Shown: positions 1-14,877 of the stretch, piece after piece
Layout of the letters: each line of letters begins with the position of its first letter
Numbering within the stretch: position 1 is the first letter of the stretch
From: a virus
Lineage: Duplodnaviria; Heunggongvirae; Uroviricota; Caudoviricetes
Virus record (IMG/VR): IMGVR_UViG_2703718796_000007
Reading direction: 5' to 3' (one strand)
Length of the DNA stretch: 14,877 nt
The notes under the pieces: model-generated
The model's input: the letters and a program-made list of their open reading frames with translations, nothing else
Databases searched by the model: none
What the model was told of the DNA's origin: nothing
Program-made: the position numbers and the translations under genes

Positions 1-1218
1 ATGAACAAACTGAGCGATACCTTGCTAAGGAAACTTCATGGTAAGCCAGCGGAGAAAAACACGTTTTATAGCGATGGCGGAAATCTGAGCGTGAAATATT
101 TAACATCAGGGAAATTAACCTGGTATTTCACTTACAGGGCAGGAACGGGAAGAGAGACACGACCGGAACGTATTAAGCTGGGAAATTATCCTGATCTGAG
201 CCTGAAAGCAGCCAGGGAAAAAGCCGCCCAGTGTCGCGCATGGCTGGCGGAGGGGAAAAATCCACGCCATGAGATGAATTACGCCGTACAGGAAGCGTTA
301 AAGCCGGTAACGGTTGGCGATGCGCTCACCTACTGGCTTGAGTCGTACGTAAAGGAAAACCGCGTGGATTATATCGCCCTGAAAAGGCGACTTAATAATC
401 ACGTAATACAGTACATTGGCGCTATGCCGCTGGATAAATGCGAGCTACGGCACTGGCTGGCCTGTTTTGACCAGGTGGCAAAGCGAACACCTGTTACTGC
501 CGGATTCGTGCTACAGACATGCAAGCAGGCGCTTAAGTTCTGCCGGAGGCGGCGCTTTGCAATCAGCAACGTTCTCGATGATCTGAACGTGGCGGACGTT
601 GGGAAAAAACCGGATATAAGCGAACGTGTCTTAAGCACCAAAGAACTGGGCGAGTTATTGCAGGCGCTGGATAAAAAAATATTTTCTCCTTACTACGTCG
701 CGTTAATCCGCCTCCTGATTGTCTTCGGAGCCAGGACGGTAGAACTGAGGTTATCGGAGATCAGCGAGTGGGATTTTACCGAAATGCTATGGACCGTTCC
801 GAAGGAGCACAGCAAAACAAAGGTTGCAATATTCCGGCCCATACCGGAAGCGATCCTGCCGTTCGTCACGCGGCTGGTGGACCAGAACAGGCACACGGGC
901 TTATTACTGGGGGAAGTGAAACAGGAGGCCAGCGTATCGCAGTACGGCAGATTAGCGCACAGGAGGCTAAAACACCCTCAATGGTCATTGCATGACATCC
1001 GGCGCACCTTTACAACCATGCTGAACGATTTAGGCGTTGATCCTCACGTCGTGGAGCAGCTTACAGGCCACCAGATGCCAGGAATGCAACGCGTGTACAA
1101 CCATTCCCGCTATATTGATGCGAAACGCAATGCGCTTGATATGTGGGTGGAGCGGTTGGAGATACTGGCGGGAACACATGAAAACGTAACCACGCTACCA
1201 GTAACCAGAATAAAATAA
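1..1218 (+). CDS. int: Tyrosine integrase, P4-like family with N-terminal arm-binding domain
   Basis: 405-aa ORF starting at window position 1. N-terminus LSDGGNLSVKY...YRAGTGRETRPERIKLGNYPDLSLKAAREKA fits the P4-family arm-binding domain pattern. C-terminal region has box I Arg (GARTVELRL), HDIRRTF (H-x-x-R) and a terminal Tyr context (VYNHSRY). Confidence 0.9.
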   Translation: MNKLSDTLLRKLHGKPAEKNTFYSDGGNLSVKYLTSGKLTWYFTYRAGTGRETRPERIKLGNYPDLSLKAAREKAAQCRAWLAEGKNPRHEMNYAVQEALKPVTVGDALTYWLESYVKENRVDYIALKRRLNNHVIQYIGAMPLDKCELRHWLACFDQVAKRTPVTAGFVLQTCKQALKFCRRRRFAISNVLDDLNVADVGKKPDISERVLSTKELGELLQALDKKIFSPYYVALIRLLIVFGARTVELRLSEISEWDFTEMLWTVPKEHSKTKVAIFRPIPEAILPFVTRLVDQNRHTGLLLGEVKQEASVSQYGRLAHRRLKHPQWSLHDIRRTFTTMLNDLGVDPHVVEQLTGHQMPGMQRVYNHSRYIDAKRNALDMWVERLEILAGTHENVTTLPVTRIK

Positions 1219-1266
1219 TTTTTTTCGTGTTTTTTCAGTATGCGCATACTGGATAAGTGCACAGAT

Positions 1267-1306
1267 ACAACGTGAAACAATGTGCAACAACGTGACACAA
1301 TCACGA
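1267..1306. repeat. Four phased 10-bp repeats (ACAA-NGTGN-N), two containing AACAACGTG
   Basis: acaacgtgaa / acaatgtgca / acaacgtgac / acaatcacga in tandem with a 10-bp period, about 50 bp after the int stop. The 9-mer is the reverse complement of CACGTTGTT found at 7181-7189 and 14618-14626. Confidence 0.5.
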
Positions 1307-1407
1307 ACAAGAGGCCAAAAAGAATACAGATTTGTAAGTTGCTGATTTTTAATGCTCAGCTGGTTTTTTATACATTAGTGAATTACGCGTTAAAGCGTGC
1401 GAAAAAA

Positions 1408-1430
1408 GGCATAAAACAAGATTTTATGCC
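1408..1430. terminator. AT-rich hairpin flanked by an A-run and a T-run (possible bidirectional terminator between int and alpA)
   Basis: GGCATAAAA-caaga-TTTTATGCC: 9-bp stem, 5-nt loop, preceded by aaaaaa and followed by tttgtatt. Confidence 0.35.
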
Positions 1431-1582
1431 TTTGTATTAACATGAATTTAAATGATTTTATCCTGATTATTCCTCTTTCTGTAAACCATACGACATCAAC
1501 ATTTGCCATTCACCACACTAGCGGGAACAATACGACACAATAAGACACCTGATGACTCTTTAAGAAACGAAAGGGGGCAATA

Positions 1583-1771
1583 GTGTTAAGCACTGATCGG
1601 TTTATACGTGAAAAAGAATGCGAAAAGCTAACAGGCCTTAGCCGCTCATGCCGCTACCGCCTGGAAAAGGCCGGACAATTCCCATCACGTCGTAAACTTG
1701 GTGGGCGTTCTGTTGGCTGGTCTTTATCTGAGGTTTTGGCCTGGAAGGATAGCTGCAAGGCAGTTCACTAA
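1583..1771 (+). CDS. alpA: AlpA/Vis-family transcriptional regulator (winged-helix, excisionase-like)
   Basis: 62 codons; GTG start 5 nt after a GGGGG Shine-Dalgarno. LTGLSRSCRYRLEKAGQFPSRRKLGGRSVGWSLSEVLAW matches the AlpA family pattern. Confidence 0.85.
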   Translation: MLSTDRFIREKECEKLTGLSRSCRYRLEKAGQFPSRRKLGGRSVGWSLSEVLAWKDSCKAVH

Positions 1772-1911
1772 AAAGACTGGCGGCACACAGTCGCCACACA
1801 TCCACTAATACAGAGATATAACTATGAAGATTGAATATGCGCCCGAACGTGGGCGGGGATTCGTTCGCCCTGGTGAAACTGAAAAACAACAAAATTGGGG
1901 TTTTTCAGGCA

Positions 1912-1939
1912 TAAAAAAAGCGGCCCCGATATGGAGCCG
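1912..1939 (-). terminator. Rho-independent terminator ending the leftward RHH operon
   Basis: On the minus strand: GCGGCTCC-atatc-GGGGCCGC (8-bp stem with one G-U pair) followed by TTTTTTT (plus-strand A-run 1912-1918). Confidence 0.6.
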
Positions 1940-2014
1940 CCTTTCTGAACAATTAACCTGCTGCGCCTTATGTGTATGTGATCCCAAACATAAGCACGGG
2001 AATGATAGCCGCTA

Positions 2015-2218
2015 TCAGGCTGGTGGGCAATTACCTTGCTTGTTGGGGCCGTATTGTGCTGCCATTTTCATCCGTTCAGAACGTGAATATTTTTTTAGAA
2101 ACTCATCAAGGACAAAAGCGCATGGAGCGAATCTTTCTGATTCATGCTCGAGCGCCATATTTTCGTGCTCTCTGTTCGTTTTTTGCGATGGTGTATTGGT
2201 TGATTCTTTATTGGTCAT
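2015..2218 (-). CDS. Hypothetical 67-aa protein, cassette-1 partner (paralog of 2675..2902)
   Basis: Protein-like ORF. Shares the MTN start and the motif F-x-L-[DE]-[DE]-F-x-x-K-Y-x-R with 2675..2902 (FVLDEFLKKYSRSE versus FALEDFVDKYPRRL). Confidence 0.5.
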   Translation of the reverse strand: MTNKESTNTPSQKTNREHENMALEHESERFAPCAFVLDEFLKKYSRSERMKMAAQYGPNKQGNCPPA

Positions 2219-2275
2219 TGTGTGTACCTGTAAAGCAATGCGCCGGAGTTCCTCACGCCACGGCGCTGATGTTTT
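2219..2275. repeat. Conserved intergenic block, copy 1 (core 2227..2271), between the RHH stop and the partner start
   Basis: cctgtaaagcaatgcgccgGAGTTcctcacgccacggcgctgatg matches 2911..2955 at 43 of 45 positions, while the flanking coding sequences have diverged. Contains the inverted repeat GCGCCG...CGGCGC. Confidence 0.8.
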
Positions 2276-2470
2276 TTATTCTTTGGGTTCAATACCGCGT
2301 TGCTGTAATTCTTTTCGGATTATTCGTTTTATCCAAGCAGCTAAAGAGTCATCACCGTCTTGTTGTTGTGCTTTTTCCATCTTTTCCCGTAAGTCAGGAT
2401 CTAAACGGAACTGGAAAGGAGGATTACCACGCCTTTCATTTTTGTGTGTTGACACGTCAATTACACCCAT
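2276..2470 (-). CDS. Ribbon-helix-helix (Arc/MetJ-like) DNA-binding protein, cassette 1
   Basis: 64 aa; basic N-terminal tail then FQFRLDPDLREKMEKAQQ...SLAAWIKRIIRKEL, the beta-strand plus two-helix pattern typical of RHH repressors. Confidence 0.6.
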   Translation of the reverse strand: MGVIDVSTHKNERRGNPPFQFRLDPDLREKMEKAQQQDGDDSLAAWIKRIIRKELQQRGIEPKE

Positions 2471-2475
2471 ATAAT
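2449..2475 (+). promoter_or_regulatory. Candidate sigma70 promoter, rightward (copy 1 of a duplicated control region)
   Basis: TTGACA (2449-2454), 15-bp spacer, TATAAT (2470-2475). The spacer is shorter than optimal. Followed directly by a palindromic operator. Confidence 0.35.
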
Positions 2476-2481
2476 GTGTTT

Positions 2482-2497
2482 ATGTGTATATACACAT
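2482..2497. promoter_or_regulatory. 16-bp perfect palindrome operator ATGTGTATATACACAT
   Basis: Perfect dyad symmetry immediately downstream of the -10 hexamer; same TGTG...CACA half-sites as the TGTGCGCACA sites at 3184-3264. Confidence 0.5.
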
Positions 2498-2510
2498 TAC
2501 ACACAACTAG

Positions 2511-2555
2511 CACAAAAAACAACGCCCCGCAGTGATGGGAACACATACGGGGCGT
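2511..2555 (-). terminator. Rho-independent terminator on the minus strand (copy 1 of a conserved hairpin block)
   Basis: Stem ACGCCCCG / CGGGGCGT (8 bp, 18-nt loop); on the minus strand it is followed by TGTTTTTTG. Lies between the two minus-strand cassettes. Confidence 0.55.
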
Positions 2556-2674
2556 CTAACCAAACCATTAATTGAGGTAACGATTATGGCTATAAAAGAG
2601 CATAGCTTACTCTTTATACACACACAAACGCCCCGGAAACGGAATAATCCGTTTCATAGTTCGGTTTTGTGCAC

Positions 2675-2902
2675 TCATCCTGGCGGTCGGTTTTTGCCGG
2701 ATTTAAGCCGCCGTGGGTATTTATCGACAAAATCTTCAAGGGCAAATTTTTCTGGTGGCACTAAGCGCGGCGCTGGTGGTGGTATTTTTGTTCTGGTTAG
2801 TTCTTCCTCAAGTCTGGCGCAGGCTTCTGACTGCCTTTGCCGAATGATTTCATCTTCTTGCGTCTGCGTGTCTTGTATTGGTGATAGTGTGTTGTTGGTC
2901 AT
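2675..2902 (-). CDS. Hypothetical 75-aa protein, cassette-2 partner (paralog of 2015..2218)
   Basis: Protein-like ORF; shared MTN start and F-x-L-E-D-F-x-x-K-Y motif with 2015..2218; Pro-rich central segment. Confidence 0.5.
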   Translation of the reverse strand: MTNNTLSPIQDTQTQEDEIIRQRQSEACARLEEELTRTKIPPPAPRLVPPEKFALEDFVDKYPRRLKSGKNRPPG

Positions 2903-2959
2903 GGTACTGCCCTGTAAAGCAATGCGCCGTAGTACCTCACGCCACGGCGCTGATGGTGG
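2903..2959. repeat. Conserved intergenic block, copy 2 (core 2911..2955)
   Basis: cctgtaaagcaatgcgccgTAGTAcctcacgccacggcgctgatg; see copy 1 at 2219..2275. Confidence 0.8.
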
Positions 2960-3157
2960 TTATTCCTGCTCTTTGGCCTTGCGGCGCTGTTCATATTTTA
3001 ATTTGCGTCCACAGGCATCTAAGACCCATGCGGAAAAATTAGCACTAGGATTAGTTAATTTTTCTTGTTCAACGCTGGCATCAATCCCATCTATAAGCTC
3101 ATGTGGGAATCGAATATTTTTCTTTGCTGATTTGTTGTTTGTGTTACCACTAGACAT
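2960..3157 (-). CDS. Ribbon-helix-helix DNA-binding protein, cassette 2
   Basis: 65 aa; IRFPHELIDGIDASVEQEK...NFSAWVLDACGRKL fits the RHH beta-strand plus helices pattern. GAGGTG Shine-Dalgarno 5 nt before the ATG on the minus strand. Confidence 0.55.
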   Translation of the reverse strand: MSSGNTNNKSAKKNIRFPHELIDGIDASVEQEKLTNPSANFSAWVLDACGRKLKYEQRRKAKEQE

Positions 3158-3183
3158 TGATGCACCTCACTTAAATGGACTTT

Positions 3184-3264
3184 ATGGGCGCACACAATAC
3201 AGCAAAAAAAATGAGATGTTAAGTATTGACATGTGCGCACACATGATTTTAATCTGTGCGCACA
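3184..3264. promoter_or_regulatory. Divergent control region with three TGTGCGCACA-type palindromic operators and a rightward sigma70-like promoter
   Basis: TGGGCGCACA (3184-3193), TGTGCGCACA (3232-3241) and TGTGCGCACA (3255-3264). The last two are 23 bp apart and bracket the promoter TTGACA (3226-3231), 16-bp spacer, TTTAAT (3248-3253). A possible leftward promoter TTGCTG...TAAAGT lies near 3175-3205 on the minus strand. Confidence 0.55.
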
Positions 3265-3292
3265 GTTTGAGTTTTGTCACTCAAATTAAGCA

Positions 3293-3326
3293 ACGCCCCG
3301 CAGTGCTCGCAACACATGCAGGGCGT
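3293..3326. other. Conserved hairpin block, copy 2, in the 5' leader of the rightward operon
   Basis: ACGCCCCG...CAGGGCGT (one mismatch in the stem), then CTAACCA and GAGGTA-N4-ATG; parallels 2520-2588, where the same block precedes an ATG at 2586. Confidence 0.5.
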
Positions 3327-3362
3327 CTAACCACCAACGATAGCGAAAGTATCGAGGTAGCT

Positions 3363-3563
3363 ATGAGAAATAATACCACACACCCGCAAGGGCGGGACTC
3401 GCACAACCTGAATAAATACATCTGGCGTTTTATCGCCCTGAGCACGGCACAACCGCGCGTGATTACCATTGAGGCCACCAGCGAACAGGAAGCACGCCAG
3501 CAATCCCCGGCTGGCTGCGTGATGGTATTCGCTGCCCGTATTCGCCAGGGGGTAGGCTTATGA
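3363..3563 (+). CDS. Hypothetical 66-aa protein, first gene of the rightward early operon
   Basis: ATG 4 nt after GAGGTA; shares its stop with the next gene's start (ATGA overlap at 3560). Family not recognised. Confidence 0.5.
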   Translation: MRNNTTHPQGRDSHNLNKYIWRFIALSTAQPRVITIEATSEQEARQQSPAGCVMVFAARIRQGVGL

Positions 3564-4042
3564 GCCAGGAAATCACACTACAACAGGCAGCAGAACGCGC
3601 CCACCAAATCGAAGTTATTTGCGCACTGGCAGAGGATTACCCTGGCATGATGACCGACAGCGAATCAGGGGCAATCATCGGCTTACTTAAACGCCTTAGC
3701 GGTGAGGTCTGCGTATTCCTGAGCGATGAACAGGAAAGAAGAACGCTTATTTCTAACGAAAAAAATGCGGAGGGGTACACCATGTGCAATAACATCCGTC
3801 CGGACGCAACCGCCGCCGCGCTCACTACGCTGATGCTCGCGCTTATTGATATTTCTGTTATTGCTGACAGGGCACATAAGCACGCCACCAGTGAAACAGA
3901 ATATGCCGGGGCTTTCGTTCCTCATTCGCTGGCGGTTATGCAACTTAGTGCTGATATGGCGCTGAATGAGGCCAAAGCTATCCTGATTGCTGATTGTGAA
4001 AATGGGGGGGGGTTATGCGTGATGATCGTTTTAATTCCCTGA
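3560..4042 (+). CDS. Hypothetical 160-aa protein
   Basis: ORF translationally coupled to its neighbours. The 3' end runs through a G9 tract (4004-4012), so the C-terminus is uncertain. Confidence 0.5.
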   Translation: MSQEITLQQAAERAHQIEVICALAEDYPGMMTDSESGAIIGLLKRLSGEVCVFLSDEQERRTLISNEKNAEGYTMCNNIRPDATAAALTTLMLALIDISVIADRAHKHATSETEYAGAFVPHSLAVMQLSADMALNEAKAILIADCENGGGLCVMIVLIP

Positions 4043-4248
4043 AACAAGAATTTTCCGGCGTTCCTGATGATGCGGCTGATGCGCTTTCGTCAATGCCAGA
4101 ACTTATTAGAGCGGCTTTTTTCTTACTTTCCACGAAAGAATATAAATCAACGGGACTTGATGTACTGAATATCGCCGCCGATTATGCGGAATATGTGGCA
4201 GAGGCGCGTTACAGAAGAAAATTTCCTGAGGATGTAAGCCATGCGTGA
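4015..4248 (+). CDS. Hypothetical 77-aa acidic protein
   Basis: ATG directly after the G9 tract, which could serve as its Shine-Dalgarno; 8-nt overlap with the next gene. Confidence 0.45.
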   Translation: MRDDRFNSLKQEFSGVPDDAADALSSMPELIRAAFFLLSTKEYKSTGLDVLNIAADYAEYVAEARYRRKFPEDVSHA

Positions 4249-4474
4249 TATTTACATTGAAACAATAGACCGCGCATTTAGTGCCCTTGCTTACGCTGAA
4301 GGTATGTACGAAATATTGCAAATGTGGCTGGAAACATTTGGCGATAATGAGAGTGATGTAAAGAAGGCGCGGATTATTAAATCACTGATAACTCTCCTTG
4401 AACCTGTAATAACAGAGTTGCAGGAAATAGACTTATTGCACGACAGATATAACGAACAGCACACCGGAGAATAA
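4241..4474 (+). CDS. Hypothetical 77-aa protein
   Basis: ORF in operon context; start overlaps the preceding stop. Confidence 0.5.
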   Translation: MRDIYIETIDRAFSALAYAEGMYEILQMWLETFGDNESDVKKARIIKSLITLLEPVITELQEIDLLHDRYNEQHTGE

Positions 4475-4479
4475 AAATA

Positions 4480-4779
4480 ATGAAACTTAAATATTCTGGC
4501 TTAACTGCCAGTGGCAACACTCACCCTAAATTTACGCGCGGTGATATTTACCGCGACCAGTACGGCGGCACGGTAATGATTAAGGGCGTGGCGGGACGGT
4601 GCGTAACTTACCGCCGTGAAGGTTACGAATATGATTGCGTGATGCCTGTTTATCAGTTCCGGCGTGATTTTTCTCTGGTACAGGCCGTACCGCGTAACGT
4701 GCCCACCAGCAGGGAGAAAGCACGCGCCAATATTCAGAAGATGAAAAACATGATTAACGGATTCAGGGGCAAGAAATGA
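4480..4779 (+). CDS. Small conserved prophage protein (possibly DUF4222-like)
   Basis: GGAG Shine-Dalgarno 8 nt upstream. RGDIYRDQYGGTVMIKGV...VTYRREGYEYDCVMPVYQF resembles a small family common in enterobacterial prophages; the family name is from memory and tentative. Confidence 0.55.
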   Translation: MKLKYSGLTASGNTHPKFTRGDIYRDQYGGTVMIKGVAGRCVTYRREGYEYDCVMPVYQFRRDFSLVQAVPRNVPTSREKARANIQKMKNMINGFRGKK

Positions 4780-6173
4780 AAAGCGCACCGAACTTAAAAA
4801 AACAGCCTTACGACAAGATGACCGAAGTCATCATTTTTGCGGGTAGTGATGCGTGGGCACATGCGAAACAGTGGCAGGAACAGGACGGGCGACTGGCTGG
4901 CGATAATTTGCCTCCCATTGTGCTGGCTGATGATCAACTGGATGAACTGGCAGACCTGAGAATCATCGACGAGGGGCGCTATTGTGTCCGGCTGTACAAG
5001 GCAGGCCACATCAGGCCATCAAATATTAATGCCATTGCGCACAAGCTGGCGGCGGCGGGCGTAACTGATGCGAATTATTACCCCGAAGGGATACACAGCC
5101 AGAAGCGGGAGAACTGGCGCGAATATCTGGAACGGGAGCGGGGGAAAAAGCCAGGGGAAGAACACCACCAGCGAAAAACCACGCTACCGATGAGCGTTGG
5201 ATCTGCCGGATACGACACGCAATTAGATTACGTGGTAAAGGGGATTATTCCGGCATCGTCGCTATGCAGCATATACGGGGCAAGCGGTTCCTATAAATCA
5301 TTCCTTGCTGGTTCGTGGGCGTGTCACGTTTCCACGGGCCGCCAGTGGGGAGGCCGCAGGGTGGCGCATGGCGCTGTTCTCTATGTGGTTGGTGAAGGCG
5401 GTATCGGCGTTCCGCGTCGTGTAAAAGCCTGGGAGGTTGTGCACGGTGAGCAGGTGAAAAATCTGTATCTGGTAAACCGTCCCATCTTTCCGGCTGTCCC
5501 GCTTGATGTTGATGAACTGGTTATTGCTGCCAGTCAGGTGGAGAGGGAAACGGGTAAACCTGTTCGCATGATTATTCTGGACACGCTGGCGCGCTGCTTT
5601 GGCGGCAATGATGAAAATGACTCCCGCGACATGGGGGCGTTTATCCGTGGGTGTGACGAACTGAAACGACGCACAGGGGCCACGGTGCTGGTGGTTCACC
5701 ATTCCGGCAAGGATGAGACGAAAGGCGCGCGCGGTTCCAGTGCATTTCGTGCATCACTGGATGCTGAATACCGGATACGCAGGGAGGACGCAGGAAGCGA
5801 AGCGCTGGTTATCTCATGCACCAAAATGAAGGACGCGGAGGAACTCAAAGAGGCTGCCTATGATTTGCGGGTGGTGGAGCTTTTTACCGACGCTGACGGG
5901 GAGTTAATCACGTCGCTGGTGGTGGTGGATAAGCCGCGCCCTCCCGTTGAACTGGAGCGCATCGAGGAGGCAGGGAACAAGACGGAAAACCATACCGCGC
6001 TATGGGGGTGCATCCGTTCACGCACACAGAACGGCGACAAGTGCACGATCCCGCTGTTACGTGATGACATGAAAAAACTGGGGTATGAAATGAAAAACTT
6101 CCGGCGCTGGCTGTACAAGCTGGAAAAAGATGGGGTTATTCGTATCGATGGGGATGATGTAGCGCCGCTATAA
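4776..6173 (+). CDS. Replication initiator: RepA-like / AAA_25-type RecA-fold ATPase (helicase loader or helicase) with an N-terminal extension
   Basis: 465 aa. Walker A-like YGASGSYKSFLAG; Walker B MIILDTLARCFGG; the VLVVHHSGKD motif typical of RepA/AAA_25 proteins. Followed immediately by iterons. Confidence 0.85.
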   Translation: MKSAPNLKKQPYDKMTEVIIFAGSDAWAHAKQWQEQDGRLAGDNLPPIVLADDQLDELADLRIIDEGRYCVRLYKAGHIRPSNINAIAHKLAAAGVTDANYYPEGIHSQKRENWREYLERERGKKPGEEHHQRKTTLPMSVGSAGYDTQLDYVVKGIIPASSLCSIYGASGSYKSFLAGSWACHVSTGRQWGGRRVAHGAVLYVVGEGGIGVPRRVKAWEVVHGEQVKNLYLVNRPIFPAVPLDVDELVIAASQVERETGKPVRMIILDTLARCFGGNDENDSRDMGAFIRGCDELKRRTGATVLVVHHSGKDETKGARGSSAFRASLDAEYRIRREDAGSEALVISCTKMKDAEELKEAAYDLRVVELFTDADGELITSLVVVDKPRPPVELERIEEAGNKTENHTALWGCIRSRTQNGDKCTIPLLRDDMKKLGYEMKNFRRWLYKLEKDGVIRIDGDDVAPL

Positions 6174-6364
6174 AAGTGAGGAGCAAAAGCGAGGGGGGTA
6201 GAAAGAGGGCCAAAATTAGCCTGCTCTCCCTCACTTTTCGACCTGTATACATCCTCAAAAGTGAGGGGTAAAAAAATACTTATGAAACACACGCATAGAA
6301 AAACCAAAAATCCCAACTGCGACGAAGTGAGACGCTTGAAAAAGTGAGGCGAAAAAGTGAGAGG
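6172..6364. repeat. Iteron-type replication origin: at least six copies of AAAAGTGAGG-like repeats in both orientations flanking an A-rich segment
   Basis: Copies at 6172-6181, 6185-6194 (aaaagcgagg), 6229-6238 (inverted), 6257-6266, 6340-6349 and 6353-6364, plus a degenerate gaagtgaga at 6324-6332. A-rich stretch at 6268-6312. Position directly 3' of the rep gene is typical of satellite origins. Confidence 0.65.
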
Positions 6365-6373
6365 TTGCGAGAA

Positions 6374-6625
6374 ATGACCCAAAAACGCAGAGACAGAACA
6401 GAGCCGAAATATAAGGCGTTAGATATGGCTGAACTGGCTTTAAAGGTGGCAATCAGAACGATAGACCGCCACGCGGGGGAAGGATACGCGAAGGAGCATC
6501 CCGAACTGATAAGCGCATTCATGACAACAGCGGCGGCAAACTTTGCCACGCTGACAGAACGGGAGATTGCCGAAGCGGAACAGGTAACAACCATCAACGT
6601 TAAAACCGGAGAGGTGGAATCATGA
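6374..6625 (+). CDS. Hypothetical 83-aa protein
   Basis: ATG at 6374 is preferred over the GTG at 6344, which lies inside the iterons; stop overlaps the next start. Confidence 0.5.
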   Translation: MTQKRRDRTEPKYKALDMAELALKVAIRTIDRHAGEGYAKEHPELISAFMTTAAANFATLTEREIAEAEQVTTINVKTGEVES

Positions 6626-12099: not shown

Positions 12100-13744
12100 G
12101 TACGCAGAAGACGTAAAAACGGGCAAAATTCCGGCCTGTAAACGGCTGAAACAGGCCGTTAAACGGTACTTTTCGGACCTTGAAAGCCCCCTTTACACGT
12201 TCGATCGTGAGGTTGTGGAGCGGTTTATTGCCTTTTCCAGGGTGTGCCCGCACGTAAAAGGGCCGATGCGTGGCAGACCCATTGAGCTGGAGCCGTGGCA
12301 GCAGTTCGCCTTTGCGTGCATCCTCGGCTTTAAGGTTAAGGCCACCGGACGGCGCAAATACACGAGCGCCTTTATCGAAGTGCCGCGCAAAAATGCGAAA
12401 TCCACGACCGCCGCGATTCTGGCTAACTGGTTTCTGATTATGGAGAACGGGCAGCAGGATATTTACACCGCAGCGGTGAGCCGTGACCAGGCGCGGATCG
12501 TTTTTGATGATGCGCGTCAGATGTGCCTTTTATCCCGACCGTTACGCAGGCGGGTGAATATTCAGGCCCACAAGGTGATGCACCCGAAAAGCAACAGCCT
12601 GTTAAAGCCGCTGGCAGCAAAAGCGGCAACCATCGAGGGCACAAACCCCAGCCTTTCCATCGTGGACGAATACCACCTACACCCCGATAACGGCGTTTAT
12701 TCCGCGCTTGAGCTGGGGATGGGCGCACGTCCCGAAGGGCTGTTATTTGCCATTACCACATCGGGCAGTAACGTCGTTTCAGCCTGTAAGCAGCACTATG
12801 ATTATTGCTGCCAGATCCTGGACGGCGAAGAGGTCAACGATTCAATTTTTGTACTGATTTACGAGCTGGACGACGAAAACGAGGTTGATGATCCGGCGAT
12901 GTGGATAAAGGCTAACCCTAACATCGATGTTTCCGTGGATCGTGAAAAACTGGCCTCAACCATCCAGAAAGCGCGGGGTATTCCGTCGCAATGGGTGGAG
13001 ATGATGACAAAGCGATTTAATATCTGGTGCCAGGGGGCTACCCCGTGGATGGGTAACGGCGCATGGGCTGAGTGTGCCGGAACGTTCACGGAGGAAGATT
13101 TACACGGGCAGGAGTGTTACGCGGGGCTGGACTTATCATCAACCAGCGATATTTCCAGCGTGTGCTATGCCTTTCCGGTCGGTAAAAATATCATGCTGGT
13201 TTCCCGTCATTATCTGCCGGAGTTCCAGCTACAGAACCCCGCCAATAAAAACCGCGCTGTCTATCGCCAGTGGGCTAAAGCGGGCTGGATACGCACAACG
13301 CCAGGTGACTGCATTGATTACGACCGGATCAGAGATGACATCATGCAGGATGCGGAGAAATTTAATATCAGGCTGGTGGGCTTTGATACGTGGAACGCCA
13401 CGCATCTCAGGACGCAATTACAGGGGGCAGGCTTTGAGGTGGAGCCGTTCCCGCAAACCTACCTCAGATTCAGTCCGGCGGCGAAATCGTTCGAAGTTTT
13501 TGTTAACCGCAGGGTGATTGTGCATCGTGGCGATCCGGTGTTGTCCTGGTCGATGAGTAACGTCGTGATGCAGAGTGACGCGAACGCCAATATCAAGCCG
13601 AACAAGAAAAAATCACCGAACAAGATAGACCCGAGCGTAGCTGCGCTGATGGCGTTTGGTACATTCCAGGCAGAGCATGAGGATTTTGCTTTTGATATAA
13701 GCGACAGCCACCGCCAGAAACTGGAAGAATTTAGCGGGGTGTAA
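12083..13744 (+). CDS. terL: Terminase large subunit
   Basis: 553 aa; Walker A-like VPRKNAKST in the N-terminal ATPase domain and a C-terminal nuclease-domain-sized region; overlaps the terS end by 17 nt. Confidence 0.9.
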   Translation: MTAWNKYAEDVKTGKIPACKRLKQAVKRYFSDLESPLYTFDREVVERFIAFSRVCPHVKGPMRGRPIELEPWQQFAFACILGFKVKATGRRKYTSAFIEVPRKNAKSTTAAILANWFLIMENGQQDIYTAAVSRDQARIVFDDARQMCLLSRPLRRRVNIQAHKVMHPKSNSLLKPLAAKAATIEGTNPSLSIVDEYHLHPDNGVYSALELGMGARPEGLLFAITTSGSNVVSACKQHYDYCCQILDGEEVNDSIFVLIYELDDENEVDDPAMWIKANPNIDVSVDREKLASTIQKARGIPSQWVEMMTKRFNIWCQGATPWMGNGAWAECAGTFTEEDLHGQECYAGLDLSSTSDISSVCYAFPVGKNIMLVSRHYLPEFQLQNPANKNRAVYRQWAKAGWIRTTPGDCIDYDRIRDDIMQDAEKFNIRLVGFDTWNATHLRTQLQGAGFEVEPFPQTYLRFSPAAKSFEVFVNRRVIVHRGDPVLSWSMSNVVMQSDANANIKPNKKKSPNKIDPSVAALMAFGTFQAEHEDFAFDISDSHRQKLEEFSGV

Positions 13745-13757
13745 TGAGGTCAGCAGC

Positions 13758-14039
13758 ATGACAGAAGCCGAAATACTGGGATTAATCCGCCGCGTCTCTG
13801 GAATCAGCCAGCAGCATGACGAACAGGGCACGCAACCGGACAGCGTGACCGCTGAAAATTATGCGCGTGTTGTTGCTGAGGTGATGCGCCGTGATGGTAT
13901 TGAGCTTAACGGCGTGGATATGCGCAACATACGAACCAGAGTCCTTGAGTTGCTGGCATACCGTCGCCGCGTGGAGATGTATCGGGAGAAGGAGAAAATC
14001 ACGTACCACTGGAAGAAGCCGGAGCGGTTACGGCGGTAA
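13758..14039 (+). CDS. Hypothetical 93-aa protein, last gene of the packaging operon
   Basis: GAGG Shine-Dalgarno 8 nt upstream; basic C-terminus. Family not recognised. Confidence 0.5.
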   Translation: MTEAEILGLIRRVSGISQQHDEQGTQPDSVTAENYARVVAEVMRRDGIELNGVDMRNIRTRVLELLAYRRRVEMYREKEKITYHWKKPERLRR

Positions 14040-14121
14040 CTCACTGAGATTAAAGCAAAGCGCGAAATTGCGCTGGCTGAATGATCATTATGATTACTTA
14101 TGTTTACGCAGATGATTAAGG
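14032..14121. repeat. Long direct repeat, copy 1, containing the stem-loop AGCGC-GAAATT-GCGCT and the palindrome AATGATCATT
   Basis: ggcggtaact...ttaaagcaaagcgcgaaattgcgctggctgaatgatcattatgattac[ttatgtttac]gcagatgattaagg; near-identical to 14164..14243 apart from a 10-bp insertion. Confidence 0.8.
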
Positions 14122-14163
14122 CCTAAACCGTTGATTATTCACAATCCCCCATTGGGGGAAGCT

Positions 14164-14243
14164 GGCGGTAACTGGTTGAACTTAAAGCAAAGCGCAAAAT
14201 TGCGCTGGCTGAATAATCATTATGATTACGCAGATGATTAAGG
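14164..14243. repeat. Long direct repeat, copy 2
   Basis: ggcggtaact...ttaaagcaaagcgcaaaattgcgctggctgaataatcattatgattacgcagatgattaagg. Confidence 0.8.
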
Positions 14244-14282
14244 AATGACCGAAGGCGGAAATTCGCCTGTGGTTGATGGGGG

Positions 14283-14302
14283 GAGTTGCAGATCTGCAAC
14301 TC
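14283..14302. repeat. 20-bp perfect palindrome GAGTTGCAGATCTGCAACTC, centred on GATC
   Basis: Exact dyad symmetry read from the sequence, within a 430-bp non-coding stretch dense with other inverted repeats (for example 14253-14268, 14379-14399, 14403-14426). Confidence 0.8.
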
Positions 14303-14608
14303 GACCATGAAATTACGGAAACTACCCGTAGTTTGGGTAGTAAGAGCAACACCCAGATTTTGGGGCTTACTCGTGATACCCAAATTTGGGGTATCGGCGG
14401 CAACCATAACGACTTTCGTTACGGTTGATGCTTTTACCCCATTGAGGGAAAGGTATTACGATAATCATAACACCTACCGAACAGGTAAAGCCCACCAGCC
14501 TGATTAACTGTTAACCGGAAAAAAATTCCGGTAGGGTTCCCGATATGGGAATCCCCATATCGACAGCAACGCCCCCTTAAAATTACCCGCCTTTATATTT
14601 CTTGTGCC

Positions 14609-14626
14609 TATTTGTTCCACGTTGTT
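14609..14626. repeat. 18-bp motif TATTTGTTCCACGTTGTT, also present at 7159..7189 with a 9-bp internal insertion
   Basis: Direct comparison: 7159-7189 is tatttgttc[gtggttgtt]ccacgttgttcac; 14609-14626 is tatttgttccacgttgtt. Confidence 0.7.
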
Positions 14627-14724
14627 TCATACAGTGCGCCGAACGGTGTAGTCACTGGTGTAGTTATTTTGAGTTTTTTTGCACTTCGGGCTTAATTGAA
14701 AATATAATTAAATCAATATGTTAT

Positions 14725-14877
14725 TCAAAATAAGTTATATATAACAGCAATAAATAATGCGAGAATAAACGGCACGATGATCTCGGCGGCAAAACGGATA
14801 CCGCAGAGAATAATGACCAGCATTCCCAACATAATGACGATTTTTAGGCCATTGAGCGTGATGATCGGCTTTGCCAT
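14725..14877 (-). CDS. tqsA: Truncated inner-membrane protein ORF (50 aa) at the element's right junction; first 45 residues match the N-terminus of TqsA/YdgG as I recall it
   Basis: Minus-strand ORF starting at the window edge: [45 protein letters not shown] followed by IYNLF and a stop. The identification is from memory and unverified. Confidence 0.45.

Follow-up and report, generated by a model that had tools for sequence, protein, structure and literature searches.

The right end of a capsid-forming island

The viral record IMGVR_UViG_2703718796_000007, a DNA of 14,877 nucleotides that is called here the window, contains close to its right end a stretch (positions 14032-14470) crowded with direct repeats and palindromes. 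The window is 99-100% identical to Escherichia coli chromosomes, and the annotation of an identical genome shows, all on one strand, genes for integrase (Int), regulators, primase, SSB, PerC, an HK97-type capsid protein, protease and portal, followed by those for head-closure and connector proteins, HNH, a P27-family TerS, TerL and two short hypothetical proteins. The insertion site of the element lies inside the tqsA gene. Since such a gene set is that of phage-inducible chromosomal islands of the capsid-forming kind (cf-PICIs; bioRxiv 10.1101/2022.09.08.507074), the window is, judging from its gene content, a cf-PICI in tqsA. Sequence comparisons identify the stretch as a non-coding right-end tail that is common to many E. 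coli PICIs, modular in its composition and PICI-wide.

The last real gene of the island is an open reading frame (ORF) of 93 amino acids (aa) on the + strand (13758-14039) that matches phrog_1561 (E 5e-57) and whose function is unknown. The stop codon of this gene, the last of about 25 co-oriented genes, is a TAA located inside the first repeat box of the tail and marks its beginning; the end of the tail lies about 140 bp before the Int arm motif. The 5' fragment of tqsA, as annotated in the identical genome, occupies 14734-14877 on the - strand. Therefore, the stretch sits between the last gene and the right attachment site (attR). A first-pass annotation, made from the letters of the window, had placed it after the terminase operon, which needs one correction: it is not directly behind terL, because the 93-aa ORF intervenes and the first repeat begins in the last codons of that ORF.

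Excess of structure and non-coding status

Hairpin-capable inverted repeats are about ten times more common in the stretch than in the rest of the window or in shuffled sequences. Ten inverted-repeat axes (stem of at least 6, loop of 3-8) are present in 14032-14562, against a mean of 0.76 (maximum 3) in other 531-nt windows of the island and 0.71 +/- 0.86 (maximum 5) in dinucleotide shuffles. The RNA-folding z-scores are -6.9 (+ strand) and -8.9 (- strand) for 14276-14445 and -4.1 (+) and -3.8 (-) for 14032-14275; in both segments, none of 200 shuffles folded equally well. The earlier description of 14032-14470 as a non-coding, strongly structured region is borne out by these scores and by the failure to find a conserved ORF or a family match. 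Clear evidence for a translated protein had been named as an argument against it; no frame is kept among the homologous tails, and the local ORFs belong to no family of Pfam or PHROG.

It is very improbable that the stretch encodes a small protein, be it the 50-aa ORF called by PGAP at 14276-14428 or a peptide of 29-66 aa starting at ATG 14308. In favor of such a protein, the 50-aa hypothetical protein is called in one genome that is 100% identical, ORFs of 52-60 aa are called in three others, and a 9-nt deletion in one homologous tail (L026) leaves the 14308 frame intact. However, a frame-shifting 1-nt indel (a run of G6 versus G5) separates near-identical islands, so that the frame or the start of 14276-14428 is lost in 99%-identical relatives, and other tails carry an in-frame TGA. 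In other tails, the frame opened by ATG 14308 either comes to a stop behind 29 codons or has no such ATG. Most of the tails bearing the same block (M2, described below) have either no start codon or an in-frame TGA, the C-terminus is not conserved, and most genomes have no annotation here.

A search of the whole window against Rfam gave nothing at the gathering threshold. The best sub-threshold candidate, manA (RF01745; 18.8 versus 55.2 bits), lacks the pseudoknot and does not recur in L003 and L004, two homologous tails. A tRNA/tmRNA search found none.

The box-plus-hairpin units

The first block of the tail (M1, 14031-14275) is a head-to-tail array of units, which were compared across 33 distinct homologous tails yielding 47 distinct unit variants. 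Three units are present in the window and one to seven in other tails (one was counted as having none); 32 of the 33 tails contain one or more. The unit consists of a box, TAAC-N3-4-YTGAKATT (pattern TAACCCGYTGATATTYYCGG), 7-8 nt, and then a hairpin whose stem has 5-7 bp and whose loop of 3-6 nt is rich in A/T. Many units terminate in GGCG(C)GGTAAC, a sequence resembling the 3' end of the 93-aa gene.

All the units of the window are read on the + strand. Unit A1 (14037-14121) is formed by the box TAACTCACTGAGATT (14037-14051), the hairpin AGCGC-GAAATT-GCGCT (14059-14074) and a so-called X module (14077-14121) with helically phased repeats of the TTATGATTAC type. Unit B (14124-14159) contains the box TAAACCGTTGATTAT, whose complement is a perfect consensus for integration host factor (IHF), WATCAANNNNTTR (14124-14136), and the hairpin TCCCCC-ATT-GGGGGA (14145-14159). 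Unit A2 (14169-14243) is composed of the box TAACTGGTTGAACTT (14169-14183), the hairpin AGCGCA-AAAT-TGCGCT (14191-14206) and another X module (14209-14243). A third stem-loop of the earlier description, AGGCG-GAAATT-CGCCT (14253-14268, + strand), is present as reported and recurs as GGCGGAATTCCGCC in other tails.

The two direct repeats of the first-pass annotation are real. Segments 14032-14097 and 14164-14229 are 89% identical over 66 nt and segments 14098-14121 and 14220-14243 are 96% identical over 24 nt; blastn gives an 81% match between 14032-14121 and 14164-14243, and repeat 1 holds a 10-nt extra copy, TTATGTTTAC. Both repeats had been credited with a GAAATT loop, which is true for repeat 1 (14059-14074) and not for repeat 2 (14191-14206), where the loop is AAAT/AAAATT. 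The hairpins at 14059 and 14253 had also been taken as an instance of compensatory change. Homology between them is not demonstrable, so their comparison gives no true covariation; kept pairing is instead found among homologous units of other islands. For instance, related units show two-sided stem changes (AGCGCA/TGCGCT, AGCTCA/TGAGCT, AAGTGCA/TGCACTT and AACGCA/TGCGTT), and at the unit B position the CCCCC/GGGGG of the window corresponds to CCTCA-ATT-TGAGG in related tails, with both pairs changed on both sides. A perfect hairpin of at least 5 bp within 30 nt after the box is present in 34 of the 47 variants, compared with 3.2 in shuffles (maximum 9), and in 27 of those 34 the hairpin begins 7-8 nt after the box, with 12 different stem sequences. 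One-sided and decayed versions exist too, 13 variants having no 5-bp stem, and in the MAFFT alignment of the units the hairpins are not all in one register.

The X modules of the two window units have 3-4 copies of a 7-10-nt motif (the TTATGATTAC type) at a spacing of 10-11 bp, and such clusters occur only in the tail. Their layout, both in the window and in the tails L003, L008, L016 and L041, is a short palindrome followed by ACGCAGA, by a third copy of the half-site one helical turn on, and by AGG. Variants have the half-sites ATGATTA, ATGACC/GACCAT or ATCACC/ATCATC, all three elements changing in concert. An X module may be a cluster of sites for a protein, or it may offer an alternative pairing in RNA. 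Type III antitoxin (ToxI-like) arrays, made of near-identical tandem repeats ahead of an endoribonuclease toxin gene, were considered for the units as a whole and discarded, given that the units are heterogeneous and that no gene lies between the array and attR.

By consensus match, the boxes fit candidate IHF sites, and the IHF-type site suggested by the first-pass annotation is indeed present (14124-14136). A perfect YAANNNNTTGATW, the complement of WATCAANNNNTTR, is found in 25 of the 47 variants and a version with one mismatch in 8 more; moreover, the invariant columns of the unit alignment (TAA, TGA and T) are IHF consensus positions. Among the window boxes that of unit B alone is perfect. 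In the window as a whole there are two perfect sites, the second being by the core at 14711-14723, where 0.64 would be expected. All this would suit a DNA-level architectural array, in which IHF would really bind at the boxes and the tail would prolong attP as a bendable segment coated with IHF, or else serve as an element of nucleoid or packaging compaction, analogous to the IHF-binding E. coli repeats discussed below (RIP/BIME-1). The phased copies in the X modules also resemble protein-binding repeats. However, both A boxes are two positions off the consensus, and since the units are duplicates of one another their matches are not independent. The array lies 500-700 bp from the crossover, islands with the same att site and arm motif differ in unit number, and the co-variation of the stems is left unexplained. 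On balance, we regard such an array as an unlikely explanation.

The M2 and M3 blocks

The second block (M2, 14283-14396, + strand) begins with the 20-bp perfect palindrome already noticed in the first pass (14283-14302), which is followed by two overlapping alternative hairpins (14310-14334 and 14321-14341) and by the hairpins 14340-14370 and 14374-14396. The latter contains a near-palindrome, GATACCC-AAATTTG-GGGTATC, that had been correctly recognized and misplaced by a few positions, its coordinates being 14375-14395 and not 14379-14399. Block M3 (14399-14536), found in most tails, comprises the hairpins 14402-14426 and 14437-14448, an inverted copy of TTATGATTA (14460-14470), a Chi site on the - strand (14492-14499) and a palindrome (14514-14532). 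The first of these hairpins is the inverted repeat AACCATAACG/CGTTACGGTT of the earlier description; it has a 1x1 mismatch that is A.C on the + strand and G.U on the - strand. Beyond M3, the inverted-repeat scan detected one more palindrome, CGATATGGG-AATC-CCCATATCG (14541-14562).

M2 is optional, being present only in some islands of each type. It is 92-93% identical in pairs of islands whose adjoining 93-aa genes are 79-83% identical; the sample was partly chosen by the palindrome itself, and without the palindrome the identity is about 90%. The block is too invariant for much covariation, and a single covarying pair was found, which closes hairpin 14374-14396 and is C-G in 17 sequences, U-A in 5 and U.G in 4. 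In the tails L005, L006, L007, L010 and L012 (about 190-550 nt past the stop codon), M2 is replaced by a block with four GTGAC repeats at a spacing of about 10-12 nt, which contains a canonical + strand terminator-like hairpin, ATGACGTGGCCAACGTCAT, followed by TTTTTT.

KilA-N-type prophage genes contain the 20-nt palindrome, GAGTTGCAGAT(C/T)TGCAACTC, as well, with ELQICNS as its translation (L032 552-571; L051 5503-5522). It was detected in more than 80 contigs of IMG/VR, belonging to two protein lineages that are 38% identical overall, and the DNA flanking it is unrelated to M2. Further sampling of KilA-N genes for the 20-mer gave near-identical gene copies only. Its presence in both places could be chance plus descent, or a common nucleic-acid signal.

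One reading takes M2, perhaps together with M3, for a separate small RNA (sRNA) acting in trans, either processed from the trailer or transcribed on its own, that would regulate genes of the host or of the helper phage. A segment of about 115 nt, very stable and with five hairpins, would be of a suitable kind; it is better conserved than the neighboring gene, and a long GC-rich hairpin with a short T run follows in both tail types. The block is also duplicated, about 435 nt apart, in two contigs of IMG/VR (L042, 4532-4551 and 4966-4985; L091, 1041-1060 and 1477-1496). As for targets, the palindrome is self-complementary, and therefore the M2 and KilA-N RNAs could pair. However, no sigma-70-like promoter was found upstream of M2 and no Rfam family matches it, there is one covarying pair only, many PICIs do not have M2, and in so large a collection one match to a 20-mer lies close to chance expectation. 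Such an sRNA is therefore considered distinctly unlikely. An even more doubtful extension would be that both the unit array and M2 are satellite-specific regulatory RNAs cut from the late transcript, and that the M2 palindrome pairs with the mRNAs of KilA-N (antirepressor-type) genes of resident lambdoid prophages.

Distribution of the tail among PICIs

A scan of 5426 complete E. coli genomes located parts of 14020-14480 in 1122 of them, each with 1-6 such places, different blocks being common to different islands. A distant-mode search of the phage collection returned no similar record. Where it was examined, the context is constant: the 93-aa gene, then 550-1250 bp without conserved genes, and then host DNA. 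Gene and tail lie behind four packaging modules, namely those of cf-PICIs, of Rpp-type islands, of islands with a fusion of ClpP and the major capsid protein (ClpP-MCP), and of a helper-embedded PICI (HE-PICI), and the islands are inserted in tqsA, phoQ, clpS, thiM or a lambda-like capsid gene, five sites in all. The arrangement is carried by cf-PICIs at tqsA, phoQ and thiM, by classical Rpp-type PICIs at clpS, phoQ and tqsA, by ClpP-capsid-fusion islands, by the helper-embedded PICI within the lambda-like capsid gene and by the CFT073 island.

In the helper-embedded PICI, inserted in the lambda-like major capsid gene (L135, 5000-5700), a degraded 93-aa gene is accompanied by box-plus-hairpin units and by the 20-bp palindrome, which stands directly before GCAGCATGTATT in four tandem copies; these probably serve another integrase as arm sites. 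In another tail (L022, approximately 3282-4540), an IS3-family element with HTH_Tnp_1 and rve ORFs lies directly behind the first unit hairpin, TTCGCC-AGC-GGCGAA.

In the CFT073 island, whose genes are ordered as in EcCICFT073, there are three units, Chi and the arm motif, and neither M2 nor the 14402-14426 hairpin. The O157:H7 island adjoining phoQ has seven units and M3, and also lacks M2. Strain ATCC 43894, which we take to be EDL933, shows the same pattern of matches as this O157:H7 island. The prototype islands of CFT073 and of the EDL933 type are reported to be mobilizable (PMC6092414; 10.1101/2022.09.08.507074). Homologous islands that lack the region and remain mobilizable had been named in the first pass as what would contradict a role for it. 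CFT073 and, probably, EDL933-type islands do lack 14283-14396, yet they retain the repeat units. It follows that M2 is dispensable for transfer.

This piecemeal distribution could mean that the tail is largely neutral debris, a mosaic of scars produced by tandem duplications of the 3' end of the 93-aa gene plus its downstream hairpin and by the swapping of modules between PICIs through recombination at short common linkers, with palindromes kept by template-switch repair and not by selection. The unit ends that resemble the last codons of the 93-aa gene, the range of 1-7 copies, the blocks shared one by one among different islands, the hairpins that have decayed in several units and the mobilizable islands devoid of M2 all agree with it. 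However, at least one unit is present in nearly all tails, with a fixed position of the hairpin with respect to the box, hairpins are retained about ten times more often than in shuffles (34 versus 3.2), and M2 diverges more slowly than the adjoining coding sequence. Neutral debris is accordingly held to be an unlikely account.

Attachment site, origin, cos and Chi

The first-pass annotation had listed the Int arm region, a second origin and a packaging region as candidate roles for the stretch. The sequences expected for each of these functions lie elsewhere.

The P-arm of attP (14612-14664, + strand) is located outside the stretch and is composed of TTGTTCCACGTTGTTTCA and then a doubled 21-mer motif, CGGTGTAGTCACTGGTGTAGT (14644-14664). 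The segment TTGTTCCA..TTGTTTCA plus CGGTGTAGTCACTGGTGTAGT is co-oriented at both island ends (14612-14664; 1640-1708 in L001, a genome whose right end is 100% identical), at distances of about 90 bp before the crossover and about 140 bp past it, and it is conserved in islands at tqsA, phoQ and clpS. These segments are probably Int arm sites. A doubled, co-oriented attP motif has been described for related PICI integrases (PMC10111431), and the window resembles that description in having such a motif in both arms, at 14644-14664 and upstream of int (L001), and differs from the proposed Int arm region in that no copy lies inside the stretch: the doubled motif, searched as GGTGTAGT, was found only at 14644-14664 and upstream of int (L001 1688-1708), and none in 14032-14470. 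A perfect IHF consensus on the - strand (14711-14723) adjoins the crossover, whose probable segment, ATAACAGCA (14741-14749), shares 9 bp with the attL junction and lies at the junction with the tqsA 5' fragment. From the positions of arm motif, IHF site and crossover, the att arm begins about 140 bp past the end of the stretch.

Replication is assigned to iterons of the form AAAAGTGAGG(N)G at 6172-6383, which are spaced by about 85 nt around an AT-rich stretch (GC 0.43) directly after the primase gene. By its sequence, this is the expected PICI origin, the ori of PICIs being reported 3' of pri-rep (PMC6092414). The iteron, searched as AAGTGAGG, is absent from 13700-14877. With respect to packaging, the lambda cosN sequence GGGCGGCGACCT, the cos type that the search covered, has no match in the window at up to 2 mismatches. 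In a classical PICI with the same tail (L004), a lambda-type cosN is found upstream of the terS-like gene and 1.25 kb ahead of the tail, in agreement with the position of PICI cos upstream of rpp/terS (PMC6739421, PMC9026076), and the cos-to-tail distance differs between island types. Since the tail occurs behind unrelated packaging modules, a TerS-specific site is unlikely.

A cis packaging site with TerS-binding repeats, or a second origin or replication enhancer like crr of P4, is thus largely refuted as an explanation of the stretch, and retains hardly any probability. What speaks for it is the presence of two direct repeats of about 85-130 bp in a satellite with a P4-type primase, together with the short phased repeats of the X modules. 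The lambda cosB site (R sites plus the IHF site I1) and PICI cos likewise combine repeats with an IHF consensus (PMC6739421, PMC9026076), but cos is upstream of terS/rpp, while the tail is downstream of unrelated packaging modules with different TerS types and has no cosN. The phage collection gave no match to the tail. The crr region of P4 consists of two direct repeats of about 120 bp that share iterons with ori. The PICI stretch is similar in having two non-coding direct repeats of about 100 bp in a satellite with a P4-type primase; unlike crr, the tail shares no iteron with the ori of its island, and no phage record matched it.

Chi sites (GCTGGTGG) are abundant in the window, with 17 copies in 14.9 kb, about 0.45 being expected for a random 8-mer. 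The average Chi density of E. coli would give about 3 copies in 14.9 kb. By sequence match, those on the + strand are at 873, 2019, 2772, 5687, 5915, 6704, 6966, 9017, 9145, 10149 and 13372, and those on the - strand (CCACCAGC on the + strand) at 3475, 4703, 5165, 8650, 10594 and 14492. The last one (14492-14499) belongs to a block of most tails, 31 of the 33 having at least one Chi in that orientation; going right from the presumed cos, it is the first one met in the correct orientation. In some tails, a further Chi, on the + strand, directly follows the first hairpin. Such an abundance suggests a protection of linear or rolling-circle satellite DNA against RecBCD.

A putative structured 3' trailer

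The anatomy of the tail, its modularity, its conservation, the kept pairing and the exclusion of ori, cos and Int arm are direct observations. With respect to function, we tentatively favor, as a possibility somewhat short of probable, that the tail is a transcribed, structured 3' trailer of the late operon, similar to the repetitive extragenic palindromic sequences and bacterial interspersed mosaic elements (REP/BIME), which would shape transcript ends and insulate attP and int, with IHF and Chi sites embedded at the DNA level. The reasons for this preference are the position of the tail, its short GC-rich stems, the kept pairing and its modular, dispensable character. That stem sequences vary and pairing is kept argues for a folded single strand rather than for a sequence-specific site of a dimeric protein; stems of 5-7 bp, we infer, would not suffice for stable cruciforms.

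All the steps of the following mechanism are inferred. The tail, transcribed on the + strand, would form the 3' trailer of a long operon that runs rightward (capsid, portal, HNH, TerS, TerL and 93-aa gene). In this RNA, the short GC-rich hairpins would act as those of REP/BIME do: they would impede 3' exonucleases and be places where transcription partly stops or the RNA is processed, and would thereby set the 3' ends and the stability of the late transcript. They would also curb transcription across attR into host genes and, once the island is excised, read-through across attP into int, in the circle the gene directly downstream and of the same strand. Inside the trailer, M2 would be a conserved element of folded RNA, and the IHF-consensus boxes before the unit hairpins, as well as the conserved Chi just beyond the stretch, would be DNA-level features embedded in it.

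As to which strand would be transcribed, the sequence comparisons lean slightly to the + strand. Stems that depend on G.U pairs of the + strand exist in the CGGCCCA/TGGGTTG unit family, and U.G pairs occur in 14374-14396 and 14310-14334. The minimum free energy is slightly better for the + strand in 23 of the 33 tails, the means being -161 (+) and -157 (-) kcal/mol.

Several observations weigh against a transcribed trailer. A consensus scan of 13700-14877 found no canonical intrinsic terminator on the + strand; two weak terminator-like matches on the - strand (14206-14191 and 14074-14059) are no more than shuffles give, and the hairpin 14402-14426 is followed only by GATGCTTTT, which is not the U-rich tract of an intrinsic terminator. 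The asymmetry between strands is weak, since the same hairpin favors the - strand (its mismatch being A.C on the +) and the folding z-score of 14276-14445 is better on the - strand. In addition, conservation is higher in the box than in the stems, and the box agrees with a consensus for DNA binding, which a model of pure RNA hairpins leaves unexplained. Template-switch correction of quasi-palindromes could maintain perfect stems in the absence of selection. Finally, because the units vary from 1 to 7 copies and M2 is absent from mobilized islands, any role of the tail would be modulatory and not essential.

Relation to known elements

The REP/BIME of E. coli, especially the IHF-binding ones (repetitive IHF-binding palindromic elements, RIP, and reiterative ihf BIMEs, RIB, both BIME-1), are clusters of extragenic palindromes located after the last gene of operons, with an IHF consensus between palindromes. 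By analogy, they are the nearest known kind: logic and position are the same, while sequence, orientation, stem variability and distribution are other. The PICI tails share with them the short imperfect palindromes clustered behind the last gene of an operon, the variable copy number and, as in RIP, palindromic units with an IHF consensus between them, which is found in 25 of the 47 variants and, in the window, at 14124-14136. The roles that have been proposed are also the same, i.e., mRNA 3' stabilization, termination and DNA architecture. In contrast to REP/BIME, PICI units are all head-to-tail and not alternating, their stems differ from unit to unit, and, compared by eye with the REP consensus, they bear no likeness to it. 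Moreover, in the cases examined they are restricted to PICI tails (1-6 places per genome in 1122 of the 5426 genomes) instead of forming hundreds of dispersed copies, and no transposase of the REP-associated tyrosine transposase (RAYT) type is associated with them.

In the sib retroregulation of phage lambda, an RNA structure adjacent to att controls int, and in Tn916 read-through takes place across the circular junction. The PICI tail resembles both systems in being a structured non-coding segment next to attP that is joined to int only in the excised circle. Unlike sib, it is located upstream of int and not downstream, and it shows no sign of an RNase III site.

The literature searches gave no match to the sequences of the tail, and in the PICI papers that were read no description of the 500-900 bp between the last gene and attR was found. 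Searches on cos and non-coding features of cf-PICIs, on Esr41, which belongs to a different island, OI-43, and on sRNAs of SpLE2 likewise brought up nothing about it.

The 93-aa neighbor and the left half of the island

The family of the 93-aa protein is narrow, with 39 clusters at 50% identity, and is never fused to a known domain. A single-sequence AlphaFold model predicts three helices with poor confidence (pLDDT 57), and a contig scan with the protein as query returned one locus. Neither the fold model nor the family provides a functional lead.

The left half of the window (1-6200) is out of line with L001 in integrase length and primase coordinates. The island itself is therefore a mosaic of left and right halves.

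Implications for PICI biology

Both as gene-transfer agents and as engineered drones, PICIs attract intensive study, and their published maps comprise int, alpA, pri-rep/ori, the genes for capsid and packaging, and cos. The tail is an unmapped, apparently constrained part of these much-studied satellites. As a modular element shared by at least four PICI types and five insertion sites, it provides defined sequences to delete or to keep in island engineering, and it is a place to look for what controls the ends of late transcripts and the expression of int after excision, for a dependence on IHF and for RecBCD/Chi protection. Were it inert, the region would mark safe cargo space. Should the box-plus-hairpin units prove to be regulatory RNAs, they would constitute a previously undescribed repeat family of phage satellites and, if the pairing of M2 with KilA-N mRNAs were true, PICIs would gain an RNA-level handle on the induction of their helper phages.

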